From assembly GCA_035345735.1 (NCBI GenBank), contig DAORCZ010000024.1, forward strand, positions 1-22,380: a stretch of DNA of 22,380 bases, read 5' to 3'. The DNA comes from Pseudomonadota bacterium. Its GTDB lineage: Bacteria; Myxococcota_A; Polyangia; Palsa-1104; JAEUJZ01. The notes under the pieces are model-generated. The model was not told the DNA's origin and searched no databases. It saw only the letters and a program-made list of their open reading frames with translations. The position numbers and the translations under genes are program-made. Shown in pieces: positions 142 through 22,380 of the stretch (positions are counted from its first letter, which is position 1; every line of letters starts with the position of its first letter).

Positions 142-1509
142 TCAGATCGCAGCCTGCGCCACTTCCCCCAGCGCCCCATCGAGGTGGTGCAAGAGCTCAT
201 CAATCTGCGACTCTTCCACCAGCATCGGCGGAGCAATGCGCAGCGTGTTGCCGTAAAGCCCGCCCTTGCCGATCAGCACGCGGCGACGCTTCATGACATC
301 GAGCAGCAGGTTGGCGCGCTTGCTCGCCGGCTGCTTGCTGCCGCGATCCTCGACGAGCTCAACGCCCTGCATCAGGCCCAGGCCGCGCACATCGCCGATC
401 AGCGGGTGCTTGTCCTTGAGCGCATCCAGCCCAGCCCGCAGTCGCTTGCCCAGCCGCTCGCTGCGCGCCGGGATGTTTTCGCGCTCCATGATGTGAATCG
501 TGGTCAGCGCCGCAATCGACGAGATGGGATTCCCGCCATAGGTGGCCAGCGTCAGGCCCTTGAACGCCCCCGCGATCTCCGGCGTCGACACTGTCACGCC
601 CATCGGCAAGCCCGAGGCCGTGGCCTTGGCAAAGGTCATGATGTCGGGCTTCACGCCGAAGTGCTCGATGCCGTTCCAGTAGGTGCCGGTGCGGCCCCAG
701 CCGGTCTGCACTTCGTCGCAGATGAACAGACCACCCGCCTTTTTGACCTCGGGCACGACCTTCTGGAAGTACTCGCGCGGCGGGACGACAAAGCCGCCGA
801 CCCCCAGCACTGGCTCGGCGATAAACGCCGCCGGCGCCCCGGTGGTGGTGGTGGCCAAGACTTCCTTGATGTCATCCGCGCAGCGGACATCGCAGCTCTT
901 GGGCGACAGACCAAAGGGACAGCGATAACAGTACGGCGCCGGCATCAGGCTGATGCCCGGCATCTGCGGCGGAATCGGCCGCCAGTTGGCGTGTCCCATC
1001 GCCGACACGGCGTACATCCCGCGGCCGGAATAGCTGTGACGCAGCGCGATGATCTCCTGCCGACCGGTGACGTTCTTGGCCAGCATCACCGCCATCTCGT
1101 CCGCTTCGGTGCCGCTGCTGCTGAAGAACGATTGCTTGAGGTTGCTGCCGGCCGGCATCTTCTGCGCCACCGCCTGCGCCAAGCGAACGATCCACTCGTT
1201 CTGGTACAGCGTCGAGGTATGCCCCAGCGTGCGCGTCTGCTCGGCAATCGCATCGGAGATCTCGGGCAGACAATGCCCCAAGCCGACCGTCAAGATGCCG
1301 CCGAAGCAGTCGAGGTAGGTGTTGCCCTCGGCGTCTTCGACGTGCAGACCCGAACCGCGGCGCAGCACCAGCGACTCGCTGAAGTAGTTGAACACTGCCG
1401 GCATCAGGTACTCGCGCGACATCGCGCGGACCTCTTGGCTGGACAGATTGGTGAGGACTTTGAGGTGGGTTTTTCCGTCGCTGGACTGGCTGGACACGGG
1501 GTTCGTCAT
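142..1509 (-). CDS. Class-III (omega-type) PLP-dependent aminotransferase, acetylornithine/GABA/beta-alanine-pyruvate transaminase family.
   Basis: ORF 142..1569, trimmed to ATG 1509 (MTNPVSS...) which is preceded by a GAGG. The DEVQTGWGRTG PLP-lysine region and the C-terminal LIGDVRGLGLM block are typical of class-III aminotransferases. Confidence 0.85.
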   Translation of the reverse strand: MTNPVSSQSSDGKTHLKVLTNLSSQEVRAMSREYLMPAVFNYFSESLVLRRGSGLHVEDAEGNTYLDCFGGILTVGLGHCLPEISDAIAEQTRTLGHTSTLYQNEWIVRLAQAVAQKMPAGSNLKQSFFSSSGTEADEMAVMLAKNVTGRQEIIALRHSYSGRGMYAVSAMGHANWRPIPPQMPGISLMPAPYCYRCPFGLSPKSCDVRCADDIKEVLATTTTGAPAAFIAEPVLGVGGFVVPPREYFQKVVPEVKKAGGLFICDEVQTGWGRTGTYWNGIEHFGVKPDIMTFAKATASGLPMGVTVSTPEIAGAFKGLTLATYGGNPISSIAALTTIHIMERENIPARSERLGKRLRAGLDALKDKHPLIGDVRGLGLMQGVELVEDRGSKQPASKRANLLLDVMKRRRVLIGKGGLYGNTLRIAPPMLVEESQIDELLHHLDGALGEVAQAAI

Positions 1510-1592
1510 GATCGGCCTCGCAAAGTCGCGCGACAGTATCACAGCGGCCCGTATAAGATGTGCGCTCAATAAATGGCGAAAGGACGATCCTA
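1510..1592. promoter_or_regulatory. Divergent intergenic region (83 bp) between the aminotransferase (-) and the isochorismatase-like gene (+). Likely a bidirectional promoter region.
   Basis: Locally AT-enriched (GTATAAGAT, TCAATAAAT) between two divergent starts. No specific sigma motif could be assigned. Confidence 0.3.
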
Positions 1593-2195
1593 ATGACGAC
1601 GGCGACGACCGTTCCAGCGATGAGCCCCAGCTCGCCCCCGCCGCTGCGACTGCTGCGCGATCAGGCGCTGTTCCTGTGCATCGATGTGCAGGAGCGCCTA
1701 GCGCCGGCGATGCATGAGGAGCTGCTCGAACGCCTGGTGCACAACGGCCGCATCCTCTTGCGCGGGGCGGCGGCGCTGGGCGTGCCGGTGCTGGTCACCG
1801 AGCAGTATCGCAAGGGCTTGGGGGAGACCGTGCCGGGCCTCGCCGAAGCGATTCCACCGAATGCCGGCCGACACGAAAAGATCGACTTTTCCGCCTGGGC
1901 CGATCCCGCCATCGCCAAGGCGATTGTCGACAGCGGTCGTACGCAGATCATCGTCTTTGGCATGGAGACGCATATCTGCGTCTACCAGACCGTGCGTGAT
2001 CTGGCGCATGTCGGCTATCGCGTGTTCGTCCCGCACGATGCCGTCTGCTCGCGCGATCCCGAAAACCTGCGCGTCGGCCTCGTACTCGCCGAGAGAGTCG
2101 GAGCCACCGTAACCGCCACCGAGACCGTGCTCTTCGATCTCCTCGGCCGCGCCGGTACACCGGAGTTCAAGGCCATCTCCGCCTTGGTGAAGTAG
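1593..2195 (+). CDS. Isochorismatase-family cysteine hydrolase (YcaC/nicotinamidase-like).
   Basis: ATG 1593 with AAGGACGA upstream. The D...K...C catalytic triad context is present (LFLCIDVQ, YRKGLG, GMETHICV). Confidence 0.8.
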   Translation: MTTATTVPAMSPSSPPPLRLLRDQALFLCIDVQERLAPAMHEELLERLVHNGRILLRGAAALGVPVLVTEQYRKGLGETVPGLAEAIPPNAGRHEKIDFSAWADPAIAKAIVDSGRTQIIVFGMETHICVYQTVRDLAHVGYRVFVPHDAVCSRDPENLRVGLVLAERVGATVTATETVLFDLLGRAGTPEFKAISALVK

Positions 2196-2296
2196 GCGAC
2201 GGAAGCGTCCTTGATGTCACTAAGCCGCGGCGCGGTCGCGACACAGTCGAGGCTGACATGCGGCACTGGCTGGCATCGCGCTAGCCACAACCCGCC

Positions 2297-4768
2297 TCAA
2301 ATCTTGATCTCGTAGCGCGGTCGCGGATCCCGATCGCTGCCATAAAGCCATCGCGCGTCCGGCTTCCAGCTTCCGTTTACCTCCTCACGGCGACGGGTCT
2401 CGACCGTCAGCTTGTCCCCCTGGAAGCGTAGAAGCTGATATTGGAGCGGATAGCCTGGGACCCACTCGCGAGTGGGCGCCCCGAACGTCCCAGCACCGAT
2501 CAGGCTGATGCGGCGTCCAGCCTGCTCGACGTCATACTGGTAGCTATTGGGCTGGGCTTTGTGTGTGTGGCCGTGCAGCCCCAGCCGAAAGCCTGTCTGC
2601 GCCAGCTGTTCCAGGAAGCCCGTGCTGGTGATGCGGTCCTCGCCGGTAGAGGTCTGCACTGGGTGGTGCCAGACCGCGATCTTCAGCGCCTGGCTGAACG
2701 CTGGGTTATTGCGGATGCTCTTCAGCGGGTTGACGAGCGCGCCATCTTGGATGCTGGCGCGACTGCGGTAGTGATGGTCACACTGCCAAGCCGAGTTGAG
2801 TCCCAGGAACAGGACGTTCTGCGTCGAAAAGTGATGCAGCGTCGCCTGCTCTTCGTACTCGAGCGGATAGATCTCGCCGCGCACAGCGGCATAAAATTTT
2901 GCCCAGGCCTCAAATCGTAGCTTGTAGTCGGCGTCGTTGCGGACTTCGACATAGTCGCCATCCTGGTCGATGTCGCGCTCGGGGACCAGCGTGCCCTTGT
3001 AGCTCTTGCGGCGCACAGGAACGTAGGCTCGCTCGCTACGCTCCCAGTTCACGTCGTGATTGCCCGGAACCAGGATCAGCTGATGCGGCGACAGGTTGAA
3101 CTCGCCAGCTAGGTCGAGCAGGAAGTTCCGGGCTGCATCGTACTCAGCGGGCTCCGCGCGGTTCCCGACATCGCCGGAGACCACAACGGCCATAAGACCG
3201 TGCGGCTTCACTTCATACTTAAGATCGCTCACGAGCTGCGAGTGCCACATTCGCGCCTGCTCCGGCGTGCCGAAGTGGAGGTCGCTAAGGTGCAGGACCG
3301 AGAATTCGGTCACTTTCACGCTTCTGGCGACCGCTGCGCTTGGCTGCGTCTCTACGGGCGTCTGAGCCGGGGTGTTAGACGACGGCACACTGTCCCCGCC
3401 GGTCGGCTTGCTGCGACGCACGAAGAACGGCCCCTTCTCCGCATCCCAACGCTCGACCGTATGTCCGGTGGCTCGGCCGAACTCCGGCCAACGCAGGTGG
3501 TTCAGGTAAAAGATCAGCAAGAGATCTTCAACGCTCAGCACCGTGGCACCCCGATCGTAGTGGAGGATGTTCGAGAGCAGCGGCACGTCGTCATAAAGCC
3601 GCGACAAGTTGCTCTGCATCAACCACTCGAAGGCCGGCATCAGCGTCGGATCGCCGTCCAGGTGCTCGTTAAGCAGCACCATGCCGTCATCGGCGCGGGC
3701 AAGCAGCCACAGGAGCTTCAGGCAAGCGCCACGCGGCGGCGGTGCTGCATCGTAGCGGGCGAACTGGACCAGCAGAGCATGAAACTGCGCCTTCAGCTCC
3801 TCGCGCGCTTGGGCAATCGCATCCTCGGGGGTCGCCTCCACCTGACGTACCTGCGACGTCACCTCCGTGATGCGGCGGTCCCCATCCGCGCGAGTGTTGT
3901 GAACAGTGATCGCAGCACGGCACAGCCGCTGGCCCGCCAGGAAGCTGCCGCAGGCCGCCTGCGCGAGCCTTTCAGGCTGCAGGAACTGCAAGTGCGCCTT
4001 TTCGCCACCGCCGCGAATAAGCTGCTCAATGAGCCGCGCCGGCTGACGCCCCATGGACACCGTCTGCAGGCGGTTCATCACGTCCGGCACATCGACAGCC
4101 AGCGCGGTCTTCAGCTGATTGATGCCGATGAGTGTGAACTTGATATCGCGCCGCTTCTTGTCCACTAGCAGGCGGATGAGCCGCAGCAACCTCGTCAGAA
4201 GATCACGCGGTAGGTAGTGGGCGTTGTCGATGACGTAGTAGCCAGACGGCGGGTCTTCGCTGTCGGCCCACTCGCGTAGCTTTGCCGCATCGGCTTTCGC
4301 GTTTCCCTGCAGCCAACCCGCACGGTCGGCCATTCGCAGCTTCTCCAGCGCCTTGGTCACCGCCGTCGTCTTGCCGACCCCGGATGGCCCTTGGACCAAC
4401 AAGCCTTCGCCCATGGTCGGCAGGCTCATCTCCAGCTGGGCTGCCTCCGTCGGAGCCACATAGGTGTGCTCCGGCACTCCCGTGATAGGGAAAATCTCGT
4501 CGATCTTTAGAGCCGGCCCCTGCTGAAGTGAGAATCCTGCGCGGTCGAGCTGGTGCGAGTATCCGGCCCGCAGCGCCAAAAGGATCTGCTCTTGCTCGGT
4601 TAACGCAAGGAGCAGACTCTCTTTCGAGAGCCGATCCATGCCGCTGGCGAACCTCATAGCGACCTGCGGAAAAAAATCTATGCAGAAGGCTTCGAAGTCT
4701 GAATCGGTCGGAAAGATCCGGTTCAAGAGTCTTCGAAGTTCCGGGCGCGAGATGGGTTCGTTCGCCAT
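2297..4768 (-). CDS. Multidomain protein: N-terminal death-like/effector-associated-type helical domain, P-loop AAA-type ATPase, helical middle region, C-terminal calcineurin-like metallophosphoesterase (CpdA/Icc-like).
   Basis: Start ATG 4768 (MANEPISRPELRRLLNRIFPTDSDFEAFCIDFFPQV...). Walker A is GPSGVGKTT; Walker-B-like is YYVIDNAHYL. The C-terminus carries all metallophosphoesterase motifs: LHLSDLHFG (DxH), VVVSGDVGN (GD), LVPGNHD (GNHD), VWHHP (H), LHGHTHK (GHxH). The ORF upstream of 4768 is open to 4981, but that extension is Pro/Arg-rich and not protein-like. Confidence 0.8.
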   Translation of the reverse strand: MANEPISRPELRRLLNRIFPTDSDFEAFCIDFFPQVAMRFASGMDRLSKESLLLALTEQEQILLALRAGYSHQLDRAGFSLQQGPALKIDEIFPITGVPEHTYVAPTEAAQLEMSLPTMGEGLLVQGPSGVGKTTAVTKALEKLRMADRAGWLQGNAKADAAKLREWADSEDPPSGYYVIDNAHYLPRDLLTRLLRLIRLLVDKKRRDIKFTLIGINQLKTALAVDVPDVMNRLQTVSMGRQPARLIEQLIRGGGEKAHLQFLQPERLAQAACGSFLAGQRLCRAAITVHNTRADGDRRITEVTSQVRQVEATPEDAIAQAREELKAQFHALLVQFARYDAAPPPRGACLKLLWLLARADDGMVLLNEHLDGDPTLMPAFEWLMQSNLSRLYDDVPLLSNILHYDRGATVLSVEDLLLIFYLNHLRWPEFGRATGHTVERWDAEKGPFFVRRSKPTGGDSVPSSNTPAQTPVETQPSAAVARSVKVTEFSVLHLSDLHFGTPEQARMWHSQLVSDLKYEVKPHGLMAVVVSGDVGNRAEPAEYDAARNFLLDLAGEFNLSPHQLILVPGNHDVNWERSERAYVPVRRKSYKGTLVPERDIDQDGDYVEVRNDADYKLRFEAWAKFYAAVRGEIYPLEYEEQATLHHFSTQNVLFLGLNSAWQCDHHYRSRASIQDGALVNPLKSIRNNPAFSQALKIAVWHHPVQTSTGEDRITSTGFLEQLAQTGFRLGLHGHTHKAQPNSYQYDVEQAGRRISLIGAGTFGAPTREWVPGYPLQYQLLRFQGDKLTVETRRREEVNGSWKPDARWLYGSDRDPRPRYEIKI

Positions 4769-4775
4769 GGCCGGC

Positions 4776-4781
4776 AGTATA
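4776..4781 (-). promoter_or_regulatory. TATACT -10-like hexamer, 7 nt upstream of the ATG of the ATPase-phosphoesterase gene (candidate leaderless start).
   Basis: The reverse complement of 4776-4781 is TATACT. There is no convincing Shine-Dalgarno between it and the ATG. Confidence 0.2.
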
Positions 4782-5016
4782 TCCGAACCCCTTGAGGGAA
4801 CCGACGGGCGGTGCCTGGGGACCGATGCCGGCGACATGTGTGGGATCGCGGGGCTGGGCATCGCTTGCGGCAGCCACGCGAGCGGGAGCGTAAAAACAAA
4901 GAACACTTCCCTCCAGGCAGCATGTGCCCGGCTGCGGTCGTGGCTTTGTGTTGTGGGGGATAAACGATCGGGCGGGGGCACGCGGGGGCGCGCGCGGTGG
5001 GCTTAGGCGATCGCGG

Positions 5017-6177
5017 TTAGCCGATGATGACGTTGCATTCGAGGAGGAATTCGATCTTGGCGCCGCTGTCGGCCTGGACGTCGGTGCAGGTCGTGCCGCA
5101 GAGCTGGACGCGATTGTTCAAGAAGTAGAACGAGTCCGGCTTGCACGAAGCCTGGTCGGCGACCTGATTGAAGATGCGTGGTGCCCCGCCCCCGCTCGGC
5201 GTGAATTCCAGCTGCGCCGTATCCAGCTTGAAGGTCTGCATCGGCGGCGGCGGCGGCAGAGCAAAGTCGCAAGCCACCTTGGCGCCCTTGATCACGCTGT
5301 CAGCGACGGCCTTGAACACTGGGCTGTAGTCATCCGTGTTGCAGATCGGATAGCGCAGGCCACCGGTCTTAATCGCCATATTCTGGTGCTGGGTACCAAT
5401 GTTGACGGCACTCGTGCACTTGGTGTTCACCAGCGGGGCCGTCGCAGGGTACGGCTTCAGGCGATCCGTGGGATCGGCCACCACGCCGACGATGGCGTGG
5501 AAGGTGTAGTTCCGCTTGGCCGCCGTACCAAAGTGGGTCGCCGACAGCGCCAGCAGCTTGGTATCGAAGTTATCCGCGCTGGCAGCCATACCGTCTGGGA
5601 AGTTGTTTTCGTTATCATCGTCGGTGATCTCGACGAAGGTCTTGTATGCACCATTGCGCAGCTGCGCCGACCAGTTGGGATAGCTGGCAATAATCTTCTG
5701 GTACGAATCCTTGCTGCGAATCTGCAGGCTATGCTGGAAGAACGTTGCCGTATTTCCGGGTTGCGCCGGAATCGGACTGCAAGTCGTACTCGACAACGGG
5801 GATTTGACACAGATCATCTGATTCGCAGAATCACCGTGTGATGACACAACGATAATCTTATAATCAACCCCGCTATTTTTGATAATAGTCGCGAAGCTAT
5901 CGTTGATACGCTTCTCGACCTCGACGATCTCCGCCGTCATGCTGCCCGAGTTGTCGATGACGAAGATGACGTCCACCGGCGACTTCTGCAGCGTCGCAGC
6001 CGCCCGCACAGAGGCGCAGGCCGCGTCCGAGTCAATGCGGCCCTTCATATCACTGCCATTGCCGCCCAGGTCCTCGTTCGGGTTATCTCCCCCGCCACCC
6101 AGCACGTCGCTGTTGCAGTTCAACCCCACCACCGCACCCAGAACGCCAGCCGAAAGCATAGCCGCGATCTTACGCAT
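5017..6177 (-). CDS. Secreted (signal peptide, possibly lipidated Cys) von Willebrand factor type A (vWA) domain protein with a Cys-rich C-terminal region.
   Basis: N-terminus MRKIAAMLSAGVLGAVVGLNC... is an h-region followed by Cys. The MIDAS motif is present: DVIFVIDNSGSM (DxSxS). A strong RBS (AAGGAAAAGGGGG) precedes the ATG at 6177. The 5' half of the gene is about 45% GC against about 69% background. Confidence 0.8.
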   Translation of the reverse strand: MRKIAAMLSAGVLGAVVGLNCNSDVLGGGGDNPNEDLGGNGSDMKGRIDSDAACASVRAAATLQKSPVDVIFVIDNSGSMTAEIVEVEKRINDSFATIIKNSGVDYKIIVVSSHGDSANQMICVKSPLSSTTCSPIPAQPGNTATFFQHSLQIRSKDSYQKIIASYPNWSAQLRNGAYKTFVEITDDDNENNFPDGMAASADNFDTKLLALSATHFGTAAKRNYTFHAIVGVVADPTDRLKPYPATAPLVNTKCTSAVNIGTQHQNMAIKTGGLRYPICNTDDYSPVFKAVADSVIKGAKVACDFALPPPPPMQTFKLDTAQLEFTPSGGGAPRIFNQVADQASCKPDSFYFLNNRVQLCGTTCTDVQADSGAKIEFLLECNVIIG

Positions 6178-6378
6178 AGTTGCCCCCTTTTCCTTACGTC
6201 TATCAGGTATCTAATTAGTCTCCCGGTCGATCCAAACCTTACAGTTTCTTTATTCTACTAGATTCGAGCGCAGTGCACATATCGAATGTGCATATTATTT
6301 TTCGTAATGATCTAGCCCCCCTAGCCCGCTCGCCGTCCCAGCCCCCGCGGGTCAGCTGCATCCCCAGACGCGGTCTGC
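6178..6378. promoter_or_regulatory. AT-rich (about 40-45% GC) intergenic region upstream of the vWA gene containing the dyad TGCACAT-ATCGA-ATGTGCA (6274-6292). Candidate promoter plus operator.
   Basis: Perfect 7-bp inverted repeat with a 5-bp spacer, read directly. A strongly AT-rich island in a high-GC genome. No U-tract follows, so a terminator is less likely. Confidence 0.35.
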
Positions 6379-7674
6379 TTAGTACAGCTTGAACTGCAGC
6401 AGCCGACCTTCCAGTGGGCCGTTCCACAGGATGTGGCGGGCGCTGGGGCGCAGGCCGATCTGCTTCGCCAGGTCCAGGTTGGCGGTGTAGACGTAGGCGG
6501 TATAGCCGGTGAAGCGGCGCTTTAGCGTGTCGCCAAGTGCGCGATACAGCCCGACAAGGTCCTCGGAAGATCCCATGCGCTCGCCGTAGGGCGGATTGCA
6601 CAGCACGATGCGCGGGGCGCTGACATCGGCAGGCGCCGGGGGCAGCGGCGGGGGTGCGACCTCGCGCAGGTCGGCCAGGCTGATCTGCGAAAACGGCGAC
6701 AGGCCAGCGGTGCCCAGGTTGCGTCGTGCTGCAGCGACCGCGTTGCGATCCAGGTCGTAGCCATAAAGGAAGACGCCGCTGCCGCGCACCGCCTGGGCGA
6801 TAAGCTCGTCGCGCACGCGGCCAAAGCCTGCAGTATCGAAGTCGCGCCAGCCCATGCAGCCGAGGTGCCGCGGCTTGCCGCCGATGCGCAGCAGACCAGG
6901 ACTGCGACGCAGGATGTGCAAGCCCGCTTCGACCAGCAGGGTGCCGCTGCCACAGCACAGATCGACGACCGTCGGCTGGCTGGCCGGACTCCCCGCGGGG
7001 GTCGCGCTGCCGTGCAGGCTGCCGAGCGCGATCTCGACAAAGGTCGCGGCCAGCGTCTCTTTCAGCGGCGCTTCCACCGAGGCGATGCGATAGCCACGCT
7101 CGTGCAGCGGCGTATCCGAGCTATCCAAGGACAGCACCATGCGCGGCACGCTGCGCCCACCGCGACCGCCCGCCGCTCCGCCCGCTGCGCCACTGCTCTC
7201 GGGCCGGTTGTACAGCTGAACATGGATGCGCAGATCCGGACTCTGCACCGAGACATCAGGACGCCGGCCGGCCCGCGAGCGAAAGCGATCACAGATCGCG
7301 TCTTTGACGCGCAGCGCAACGAACATGCTGTTGCTCAGGCCGCACTCCGGCAGCGTGCCGTGCGCCGACACCGCGAGCGTGCCATCGACCGAGAGGAATT
7401 CCTCCCAAGGCAGCGCGAACGCGGCGGCGTAGACATCTTCCGGACCGCGACACGAGACATCGGCAAGCTGCAGCAAGACGCGCGAGGCGCAGCGCAGCTC
7501 TAAGTTCGCGCGATACATCGCCGATCGCGAGCCGGAAAAGCGCACGCCGCCTTCGGGTCCAGCCGGCAGCACGTCTTCGATCTCGGGCAGTCGTGAGAGC
7601 TCAGCCGCAAGCTGCGGTTCGACGCCACGTGGACACAGCGCGCGCAGCTGCAGGTGCTGACGATTGATCTGCAT
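6379..7674 (-). CDS. THUMP-domain class-I SAM-dependent RNA methyltransferase (RlmL/COG0116-like, rRNA m2G-type).
   Basis: Catalytic motif LCNPPYGER (N/DPPY), SAM-binding DLCCGSGTLLVEAG, N-terminal THUMP-like region. Start set at the ATG at 7674 (MQINRQHLQL...) where family-like sequence begins. The ORF stays open to 7821. Confidence 0.7.
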   Translation of the reverse strand: MQINRQHLQLRALCPRGVEPQLAAELSRLPEIEDVLPAGPEGGVRFSGSRSAMYRANLELRCASRVLLQLADVSCRGPEDVYAAAFALPWEEFLSVDGTLAVSAHGTLPECGLSNSMFVALRVKDAICDRFRSRAGRRPDVSVQSPDLRIHVQLYNRPESSGAAGGAAGGRGGRSVPRMVLSLDSSDTPLHERGYRIASVEAPLKETLAATFVEIALGSLHGSATPAGSPASQPTVVDLCCGSGTLLVEAGLHILRRSPGLLRIGGKPRHLGCMGWRDFDTAGFGRVRDELIAQAVRGSGVFLYGYDLDRNAVAAARRNLGTAGLSPFSQISLADLREVAPPPLPPAPADVSAPRIVLCNPPYGERMGSSEDLVGLYRALGDTLKRRFTGYTAYVYTANLDLAKQIGLRPSARHILWNGPLEGRLLQFKLY

Positions 7675-7962
7675 GCGCGGCGTCTCGCTCGCCCGCGAGC
7701 GGGCCAGCGGGCGCGGCTCTGGAACATACTCCTCACGGCGAGTGGGAGCGGGGCGCGAGTCGCGATACGGACGATAGGGATTGGGAAAAGTCATGTGGCG
7801 ATCCGGTCGCAGCCGTACCACATCGCCGCGCGCGCTGTCACCGCTTTGTCGGCCTGCGGATCGGGACTACGAAGCCCGTTCTGCGTCGAGAATTTGCCCC
7901 GCCCCGGCGGTCATTGACCCCACCTGCAGCGCGGGAGGAAAATCCACCCGGAGGCAAAGAAC

Positions 7963-21222: not shown

Positions 21223-22263
21223 CTAAAGCTTCAGCTTGTCCATGTCGCGGGCCAGCGCATCGGGGGCCACGTGCGAGTAGATCAGCGTCATGTCGAGCGA
21301 GCCGTGACCGAGGATGTCCTTGAGGGCGACGATGCTGCCGCCTGATTCGACGAACAGCGAGGCGAAGGTGTGACGCAGCGTGTGCCAGGGCCGGATGGGT
21401 ACCGTGCAGCCTATCGCTTTGAGCAGATCCGCAAGCCAAGCCGCCGCGCGTTTGGCGCCGAGCGGACACACCAGACCGGCCGCAGACTTCGGACAGATCG
21501 TCCGCCATTGTGCAAGCTCATCGACCCAGGTCGCGGGCAGTGGCACGGTGCGCGGCTTGCCCGACTTGGGGGTGCGATCAAAGCTGCGGGCGACGGTCAA
21601 ACGGCGACGCGGCAGATCGACATCCACCCATCGCAGGCCAAAGATCTCTCCGAAGCGCAGCCCAAGGCGCAGGGCCAAACAGACCGCCACGTAACGGGCT
21701 TGCTGCATCGCATCGGTGCGCTGTGATCGCGCAAGATCCAGCAGTCGCCCCGCTTCTTCGGCGCTCAGGCGATCCGTGCTGGAGGTCTTGCGCGGCAGCT
21801 TGAGCCCGACCATCGGCGAGGCCGGGATCAGCTCTTGCCGCACGGCCCAGGTCAGCGCCGCTGCCAGCGGCCGGAGCGCTGCCGCCAGCGTGTTCGGTTT
21901 GTAGCGCGCCATCAGCTTGTCGCGCAGGCCTTCGAGGTCGCGGCGGCGCAGCTTGGACAGCGGGATCGCGCCGACCACCGGCAGGACGCGAACCAAGGAA
22001 TAGCCTGCCGCCTTGCGATACCGCTCGGCATCTTTCGCGCGCGGGTGAGCCGAGGCCAAGAAGCGCTCGCACAGTTCGGCCACGGTCATGGTGCTGGCAC
22101 TCGCCGCCGTGACCACGCCACGTGAAACGTCCGCTTCGGCCTGCGCCAGCAGCTTGCGCGCTTCGCTGTGGCTCATCGCGGCCGTCGTCTTCACACGCCG
22201 CTTGCCTTCGGCGTCGAAGTACCGAATCGCCCACTTCTGTCCCCGCTTCAGGATGTCGCCCAT
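21223..22263 (-). CDS. Tyrosine site-specific recombinase / phage-type integrase.
   Basis: C-terminal catalytic motifs HTLRHTFAS (H-x-x-R-H) and LGHGSLDMTLIYSHV (catalytic Tyr). The upstream Arg is in LRLGLRFGEI. ATG 22263 with GGGAGTGG lies 9 nt upstream. The ORF stays open to 22371. Confidence 0.85.
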   Translation of the reverse strand: MGDILKRGQKWAIRYFDAEGKRRVKTTAAMSHSEARKLLAQAEADVSRGVVTAASASTMTVAELCERFLASAHPRAKDAERYRKAAGYSLVRVLPVVGAIPLSKLRRRDLEGLRDKLMARYKPNTLAAALRPLAAALTWAVRQELIPASPMVGLKLPRKTSSTDRLSAEEAGRLLDLARSQRTDAMQQARYVAVCLALRLGLRFGEIFGLRWVDVDLPRRRLTVARSFDRTPKSGKPRTVPLPATWVDELAQWRTICPKSAAGLVCPLGAKRAAAWLADLLKAIGCTVPIRPWHTLRHTFASLFVESGGSIVALKDILGHGSLDMTLIYSHVAPDALARDMDKLKL

Positions 22264-22380
22264 GTTGATCCACTCCCTGATCCAGCCGTGCGGCGAACGG
22301 CTCGTCGGAGCCCCAAAAGGACGGTCCGGCGGTCGATACCGCCACCGTCGCAAACTCGCATTATTCCACATTTTTTTAGT

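Follow-up and report, generated by a model that had tools for sequence, protein, structure and literature searches.

A probable single-gene conflict protein of Myxococcota joins an EAD7-like adaptor, an ORC/Cdc6-like AAA+ core and a calcineurin-type phosphoesterase

Introduction

Validated single-protein immune sensors are mostly STAND- or NLR-like, and the gene at positions 2297 to 4768 of contig DAORCZ010000024.1 (assembly GCA_035345735.1, class Polyangia) raises the question of whether a protein built on a different ATPase belongs among them. Throughout, the window means the whole stretch of 22,380 nucleotides that we analysed. From the letters of this stretch alone, an earlier description, here called the original prediction, had proposed that the gene encodes a fusion of a death-like N-terminal domain, an AAA-type ATPase and a metallophosphoesterase, acting as a nucleoside triphosphate (NTP)-gated effector of a conflict or defence system. 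Our sequence and structure comparisons suggest that the protein is most likely a variant of the known single-protein bacterial immune systems. We consider it probable, although well short of certain, that it is a single-gene, stand-alone conflict protein of the immune or abortive-infection type, composed of three swappable modules; the odds are lower for any particular substrate of its effector.

Results

The gene is a single minus-strand open reading frame whose stop codon occupies positions 2297-2299. The frame stays open as far as a GTG at 4981, and the ATG at 4768 yields the 823-residue product. Exactly the same protein is present on seven metagenome contigs, and the three of these that are shown, from three sources, have the same 823-residue call and the same neighbours. 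A homology search with the full protein returned 27 proteins, 25 of them with identities of 40-100% and coverage of no less than 74% of the query. We worked from a family alignment of 25 sequences, from a core alignment of 77 ATPase core sequences, and from an AlphaFold2 model of the 823-residue protein built on the family alignment, with a mean predicted local distance difference test (pLDDT) score of 85.5. The strings named in the original prediction are all present (an N-terminal string at residues 8-57, GPSGVGKTT at 127-135, YYVIDNAH at 177-184 and the phosphoesterase motifs), and the protein divides as follows.

2297..4768, minus strand: whole gene, 823 residues and stop, comprising adaptor, ATPase core, linker and phosphoesterase (open reading frame and its translation)
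4559..4747, minus strand: EAD7-like helical adaptor domain, residues 8-70, of death-fold-like topology, with four long helices and one short
3434..4510, minus strand: conserved ATPase core module, residues 87-445, the unit common to TIR- and SIR2-bearing relatives
3323..3409, minus strand: Pro/Ser/Thr-rich disordered linker, residues 454-482, pLDDT below 50
2300..3304, minus strand: C-terminal calcineurin-like metallophosphoesterase of the Calcineurin-CE type, residues 489-823, with a conserved GLNSAW..DHH segment in addition to the five metal-binding motifs

The linker, which had been recognised from its composition, is the sole long low-confidence stretch of the model, and the protein has no C-terminal repeats. 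The lower guanine-plus-cytosine (GC) content reported for the 5' end is also borne out, if modestly: codons 1-80 stand at 0.562, where the gene averages 0.622 and the window 0.658. A promoter and terminator scan gave nothing beyond shuffled expectation.

The C-terminal domain matches Pfam Metallophos (PF00149) at residues 490-737 (E 1.4e-8, 35.8 bits against a cut-off of 21.5 bits) and adopts the metallophosphoesterase fold in the model. The metal-binding residues of its five motifs, LSDLHFG (D496, H498), VSGDVGNR (G532, D533), VPGNHD (residues 567-572, with G569-N570-H571-D572), AVWHHP (H701, H702) and LHGHTH (G733, H734, H736), are invariant among 25 homologs, in agreement with the intact enzyme first described. 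Its best NCBIfam match is DS9_1_antiphage (E 2.3e-25, 89.4 bits, residues 471-764), short of that model's equivalog cut-off of 420 bits, and as judged from the sequence this match indicates homology of the domain and not an equivalog. DS8_antiphage follows (E 3.1e-21, 74.9 bits, cut-off 790 bits), aligned over profile positions 1-235, which cover the phosphoesterase only. The nearest PADLOC models are a CBASS-type phosphoesterase effector (4e-16) and PDC-S60 (3e-15).

Both of the leading profiles stand for systems with experimental support. DS-8, a DefensePredictor system from Escherichia coli that joins a metallophosphatase and NACHT in a single protein, and DS-9, a metallophosphatase protein paired with a HAD protein, are validated anti-phage systems; catalytic mutations in the phosphoesterase abolished defence in DS-8 and in DS-9A, and DS-8 also needs a NACHT ATPase residue (PMC13092281). 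In PUA-Cal-HAD, which we infer to be the same system as DS-9, the Calcineurin-CE domain turns deoxynucleoside diphosphates (dNDP) into the monophosphates (dNMP) and nicotinamide adenine dinucleotide (NAD+) into nicotinamide mononucleotide and adenosine monophosphate, an activity that follows ligand-induced filament formation (10.64898/2026.01.15.699771).

The phosphoesterase module is not confined to this family. In the GTDB species genomes, modules of 45-58% identity also occur in filamentous cyanobacteria, Desulfobacterales and others, and their fusions include NACHT-HEAT (Sorangium, Nostoc, Fischerella), NACHT-HEAT-EAD8 (Cylindrospermum), NACHT-FGE-sulfatase (NACHT-FGS, with the phosphoesterase N-terminal as in DS-8), TPR-Macro-CHAT (the Macro fusion is P0026) and WD40-Roc. 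The module thus sits in the effector position across diverse conflict architectures and is shared with NLR-like proteins, and its homologs include domains that have been validated in defence and characterised biochemically.

By sequence, phmmer found no solved relative of the phosphoesterase domain; by structure, its best solved neighbours are Rv0805, GpdQ and Lmo2642. These neighbours suit an alternative explanation, namely that the protein serves myxobacterial signalling or development as a regulated phosphodiesterase of cyclic nucleotides (or glycerophosphodiesters), with the ATPase and the N-terminus controlling a housekeeping enzyme. The earlier placement of the domain, by its motif spacing, closest to CpdA/Icc needed correction at the level of profiles: these group it with DS-9A and DS-8 and not with any CpdA/Icc model, and an assignment as a cyclic-nucleotide phosphodiesterase is probably too narrow. 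Furthermore, the module and the ATPase core are fused to TIR, SIR2, Macro, CHAT and NACHT, which is the vocabulary of conflict systems, synteny is not conserved, and core relatives lie on viral contigs. We therefore judge a signalling role to be unlikely.

The ATPase core has a conserved segment ahead of the P-loop and contains the following elements.

4451..4504, minus strand: conserved pre-ATPase segment IDEIFPITGVPEHTYVAP, residues 89-106, identified in the core alignment
4364..4390, minus strand: Walker A motif (P-loop) GPSGVGKTT, residues 127-135, with K133 in 77 of 77 core sequences
4217..4240, minus strand: Walker B motif YYVIDNAH, residues 177-184, with D181 in 77 of 77 and N182 in place of the second acidic residue
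4064..4135, minus strand: sensor-1-like TLIGIN (N217, in 58 of 77) and R233 (VMNRLQ, in 77 of 77), the latter a candidate arginine finger
3890..4039, minus strand: AAA+ lid helices, residues 244-293, including GSFLAGQRLC (helices 244-258, 265-271 and 276-293 in the model)
3434..3871, minus strand: C-terminal half of the core, residues 300-445, helices and short hairpins with PPPRGA and VEDLLLIFYL motifs, pLDDT 83-93

Conservation runs through the whole core. In the pre-ATPase segment, F93, G97, P99, V104 and P106 are each kept in at least 71 of the 77 sequences; H184 follows the Walker B aspartate in 76, G274 and Q280 of the lid are nearly invariant (Q280 in 76), and the C-terminal half keeps R346 in 67 and D415 in 75. 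K133 and D181 are likewise conserved in at least 90% of the family alignment. Position 182 is an aspartate in 73 core sequences and an asparagine in only three, one of them the window protein. We assign N217 and R233 as putative AAA+ motifs from the ORC/Cdc6-like fold of the model.

Sequence profiles recognise the core only in part. Around residues 118-221, Pfam gives the P-loop matches AAA_22, narrowly over its cut-off (30.1 against 27 bits), AAA_16, under its cut-off, and nSTAND_NTPase5, a model matched at E of 0.01 or better by 18 of 25 homologs (best 4.6e-7); no Pfam family matches residues 300-445. Searched by sequence against solved structures, the core returned only generic P-loop matches (TnsC, VCP, RuvB), and no structure of the core family itself has been solved. 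A literature search on "nSTAND5" was without result, and we found no experimental study of the core family in the literature. By structure, the neighbours of the core are Cdc6, ORC1/2/4, RFC, clamp-loader subunits and DnaA, at 9-20% identity, and Foldseek alignments to Cdc6 and ORC cover about 430 columns. The core has the AAA+ base and lid (plus winged-helix) arrangement, within which residues 300-445 are a candidate sensor or winged-helix part. Neither STAND-like structural neighbours nor a large C-terminal sensor region were seen for the window protein. On the evidence of the model the ATPase fold is Cdc6/ORC/clamp-loader-like and not STAND, as the original prediction had anticipated in calling it an AAA-type ATPase outside the canonical STAND class.

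Such a fold would also suit a defence nuclease resembling Mre11/SbcD that attacks DNA or RNA of the invader or the host, with the ORC-like ATPase and winged helix binding nucleic acid and no nucleotide depletion involved. The chemistry established for the DS-9 lineage is the cleavage of dNDP and NAD+, and a nuclease of this kind seems to us rather improbable.

Around the fixed core, the termini of the protein are exchanged. Within the family, the N-terminus is an EAD7-like domain, a TIR domain, a second helical domain with a TIR-like region, or nothing. Outside it, the core matches, with 34% identity (E 2e-50), the middle part of two proteins (P0057 and P0062) that both end in SIR2; their order is a pair of EAD7-like domains, then a TIR-like region, the core and the C-terminal SIR2. 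A core profile (A5) recovered 52 relatives, mostly of about 500-550 residues and consisting of TIR_2 and the core, with E-values down to 1e-146; Pfam nSTAND_NTPase5 or AAA_22 is recorded for some of them, and core relatives match the PADLOC candidate PDC-S59 at up to E 9e-22. Further core relatives, of about 500 residues, lie on 22 IMG/VR viral contigs, in all 22 of which the frame runs some 140-170 residues past the core, and this tail looks TIR-like by eye in the two viral-contig proteins taken in full. One viral-contig protein (L090) is 45% identical to a TIR_2-bearing protein (P0195) and 29% identical to residues 89-444 of the window protein (E 7e-41). In the scan of GTDB species genomes, the full-length family was found only in Myxococcota (Sorangium, Nannocystis, Kofleriaceae and Polyangiaceae). 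Taken as sequence evidence, these exchanges indicate that residues 87-445 act as one conserved module.

The surroundings of the gene vary as well. In an all-against-all comparison of neighbouring open reading frames across 20 family loci, there were no conserved neighbours beyond close relatives; one cluster of neighbours in four loci proved to be a myxobacterial Cys-rich repeat protein, a composition-driven match that we discarded. The core-TIR relatives lie in contexts as different as transposases with a type IIG-like methyltransferase, a PIN-MazE pair with a Schlafen-like gene, and housekeeping genes. Because the neighbourhood is not conserved, the gene behaves as a single-gene unit. This bears on a further alternative, that the protein is a housekeeping replication or repair factor of the ORC/Cdc6/DnaA type with an incidental phosphatase domain. 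Its ATPase does have Cdc6, ORC1/2/4, RFC, clamp-loader subunits and DnaA as structural neighbours, but the identity is only 9-20%, the distribution is patchy, with the full-length family restricted to Myxococcota, the termini vary between TIR, SIR2 and EAD, and core relatives occur on viral contigs. An ORC-like fold is thus found together with no conserved housekeeping neighbourhood, the feature by which a housekeeping role would have been recognised, and we hold this explanation to be highly improbable.

The N-terminal domain is small, all-alpha and terminal on an NTPase protein in the model, and death folds are among its structural neighbours; the six-helix bundle that had been proposed was not recovered, since the model gives only the four long helices and one short helix listed above. 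Its assignment as an effector-associated domain (EAD) came from relatives. Four of seven orthologous N-termini match Pfam EAD7 (PF19960) at E-values of 7e-5 to 2.5e-3 and 18-23 bits, which lies under the gathering score of 32 bits. An adaptor profile (A3) built from 22 short homologs together with the domain of the window protein was then used in a HMMER search of 1.84 billion cluster representatives and matched 2784 proteins at E of 1e-3 or better, 1462 of them at 1e-10 or better, with the domain at N- or C-termini and at times in up to six copies. Pfam EAD7 is present on 35 of the 104 top matches that were scanned (best E 2.7e-19; coordinate overlap was not checked for each). The window adaptor is in this way linked to bona fide EAD7 domains by transitive homology, and the EAD-type N-terminus of the original prediction is upheld. 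Among the same 104 top matches, the domains most often fused to it are protein kinases (15), TIR (12-16), SIR2, nSTAND1/3, AAA_16/22, vWA, TRADD-N and EAD1; nSTAND1-WD40 and CHAT-PNP proteins are examples. This partner spectrum is the one reported for effector-associated domains (PMC7159879, PMC8195603).

A homotypic adaptor should have partners that carry the same domain, and these are present at the locus of a relative. In one Logan contig (SRR14092380, locus L115, positions 1677-12585), five neighbouring genes have an EAD7-like domain: the SIR2-bearing relative P0062, a 414-residue EAD7-like-SIR2 protein directly upstream of it, 690- and 309-residue proteins with C-terminal copies, and a 498-residue protein with two copies. 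The partners other than the SIR2 protein have no Pfam annotation. The pattern is that of the "EAD coupling" reported by Kaur et al. (PMC7159879, PMC8195603). Two adaptor proteins also coexist in the metagenome-assembled genome JAEUKA01, one with the order EAD7-like-core-phosphoesterase (L008) and one with the order EAD7-like-phosphoesterase-unknown (L066).

The second of these lies at positions 1-2058 of its contig on the plus strand. It has an EAD7-like domain that is truncated where the contig stops, followed by a homologous phosphoesterase and by some 310 C-terminal residues without annotation; its missing N-terminus is P0029. Stand-alone small adaptor proteins were considered as a separate class and dropped, since at least some are fragments, as P0029, which continues on L066, illustrates. 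Another small adaptor protein (L007) looks like the product of an error-rich assembly and was not counted. In Cylindrospermum sp. NIES-4074 (L029, 7346-11068, plus strand), a NACHT-HEAT protein has Pfam EAD8 (3.4e-13) between the repeats and a C-terminal phosphoesterase, so that here the adaptor is internal and not terminal.

Searches of the whole protein against Pfam, NCBIfam and PADLOC did not find a complete known system, and we compared the protein with its nearest counterparts individually. With DS-8 it shares the single polypeptide, the homologous metallophosphoesterase and a P-loop NTPase switch, both of which are needed in DS-8. However, the DS-8 phosphoesterase is N-terminal and its NTPase is a NACHT STAND, whereas here the phosphoesterase is C-terminal, the ATPase is an ORC/Cdc6-like AAA+ without a NACHT match, the long C-terminal region is missing and an EAD7-like adaptor is added. 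DS-9/PUA-Cal-HAD provides the best profile match for the phosphoesterase, a precedent for dNDP-to-dNMP conversion and NAD+ cleavage, and an effector switched on by higher-order assembly; in contrast, the window protein lacks a PUA-like domain and has an ATPase switch where PUA-Cal-HAD has a ligand-binding PUA, and no HAD gene lies near it.

The EAD-coupled NTPase systems (Kaur et al. 2020, PMC7159879; 2021, PMC8195603) resemble it in the EAD7-type adaptor at the terminus of an NTPase, in calcineurin-type, TIR and SIR2 effectors, in EAD copies on neighbouring effector genes, as at L115, and in their enrichment in Myxococcota and cyanobacteria. They differ in their central NTPases, which are MoxR-vWA, GTPases or STAND NTPases equipped with repeat or FGS sensors, while the window protein has an ORC/Cdc6-like core, a C-terminal effector fusion and no repeats. 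The TIR+core and core+TIR proteins related to PDC-S59, an unvalidated PADLOC candidate, share the whole core module (residues 87-445) at 25-37% identity, and are likewise encoded by single genes in variable contexts and on viral contigs, but they have TIR in place of the phosphoesterase and no EAD7-like domain. Rv0805, Lmo2642 and GpdQ, at about 20% identity, are stand-alone enzymes without ATPase, adaptor or conflict-type fusions. The exact architecture was not found in the EAD conflict-system literature (PMC7159879, PMC8195603), and may already be listed in the paper of Nicastro et al. (2023) that reportedly defined Calcineurin-CE.

Around the gene, the window encodes an aminotransferase, an isochorismatase, an unannotated vWA-like protein that is probably secreted, an RlmL-like methyltransferase and a protein resembling the major vault protein, along with more metabolic genes; searches of the window for tRNA and Rfam elements found none. 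The remaining features of the window are listed here.

5017-6177, minus strand: 386-residue open reading frame directly upstream of the target, no Pfam match; by eye, hydrophobic at the N-terminus and with the vWA MIDAS-like string 'VIDNSGSM'
7963-10128, plus strand: 721-residue bacterial major-vault-protein-like protein, with Pfam MVP_shoulder (5.5e-14) and Vault_3 and Vault_4 repeats
21223-22371, minus strand: phage-type integrase gene at the window edge, 16 kb from the target
142-1569, minus strand: class-III aminotransferase
184-1572, plus strand: long open reading frame nearly coextensive with the aminotransferase on the opposite strand

The 386-residue open reading frame has the lowest GC content in the window (0.587; 0.534 for positions 5501-6000) and accompanies the target on those metagenome contigs that extend far enough upstream (three shown). 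It was nevertheless rejected as an operon partner, being missing from all other family loci. An island bounded by the integrase was set aside, given the PdxS/PdxT and aminotransferase genes that intervene and the lack of a tRNA or Rfam element. Of the two coextensive frames, that on the minus strand alone matches a family, and the other is a high-GC shadow frame.

Discussion

In the mechanism that we propose for a single-gene conflict protein, the AAA+ core (residues 87-445) would bind ATP through its intact P-loop and D181 and, by analogy with its fold relatives, would assemble into an oligomer by way of the invariant R233. The C-terminal half of the core (residues 300-445) is the sole candidate for sensing the trigger. 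Assembly would then activate the C-terminal dimetal phosphoesterase of the DS-8/DS-9A lineage, which would most likely hydrolyse nucleotides at their pyrophosphate or phosphodiester bonds, with NAD+, (d)NDP or a nucleotide signal as substrate, and so deplete a pool that the invader requires. The EAD7-like domain would make homotypic contacts, either aiding self-assembly or docking proteins with the same domain. In AAA+ proteins, loss of the second acidic residue of Walker B usually permits ATP binding and slows hydrolysis. Given the Asp-Asn Walker B of this clade, ATP may be bound yet slowly hydrolysed, and the core may act as a latch and not as a motor. Gating of the window protein by NTP, as first proposed, is putative.

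Several observations weigh against a defence role. The argument is comparative throughout, and the window protein is itself an imperfect representative: it departs from consensus at N182 and at four near-invariant positions (Q126, A183, R199 and L416), and its ATPase cycle is therefore possibly altered or weakened. It scores 18.6 bits against the 34-bit cut-off of nSTAND_NTPase5, does not match PDC-S59, and its N-terminus gives no match to Pfam EAD7 at E-values up to 10. No sensor domain is identifiable in its 823 residues. The gene lies amid metabolic genes with no defence genes as neighbours in the window, and a second copy of the adaptor domain was found neither there nor beside other EAD-bearing family members, so that the partner foreseen by the original prediction, although realised at the locus of a relative, is absent from the window. 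Among the named systems of PADLOC-DB v2 (Gabija, Septu, Lamassu, Avs, CBASS, Thoeris and others), matches were at the level of domains only, with weak P-loop hits, as had been expected from the lack of resemblance to well-known defence systems. Finally, Rv0805, Lmo2642 and GpdQ are cyclic-nucleotide and glycerophosphodiester phosphodiesterases, which is compatible with signalling too.

It is tempting to speculate further that residues 87-445 represent a distinct, unnamed family of ORC/Cdc6-like AAA+ immune switches apart from the STAND NTPases, with sensing of invaders by their own winged-helix part and with interchangeable Calcineurin-CE, SIR2 and TIR outputs that destroy nucleotides or NAD+, wired through EAD7 to kinases, SIR2, TIR and STAND proteins in myxobacteria. 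We regard this extended reading as tentative and, on balance, doubtful. As part of it, the EAD7-wired network would form, in bacteria, the equivalent of death-domain signalosomes, organised on an ATPase of the replication-initiator type.

With the main reading, that of a single-gene conflict protein, current ideas would not be overturned, as comparative genomics had already predicted both the domain vocabulary and the grammar of such systems. If that reading is right, an ORC/Cdc6-type AAA+ core would be a new kind of immune switch, and the presence of Calcineurin-CE in the position that SIR2 or TIR takes on the same core would support equivalent nucleotide- or NAD+-depleting outputs. The family would then offer a compact prokaryotic case of a death-fold-like adaptor, in which the gene cluster at L115 brings the homotypic "EAD coupling" that has long been predicted within reach of experiment.

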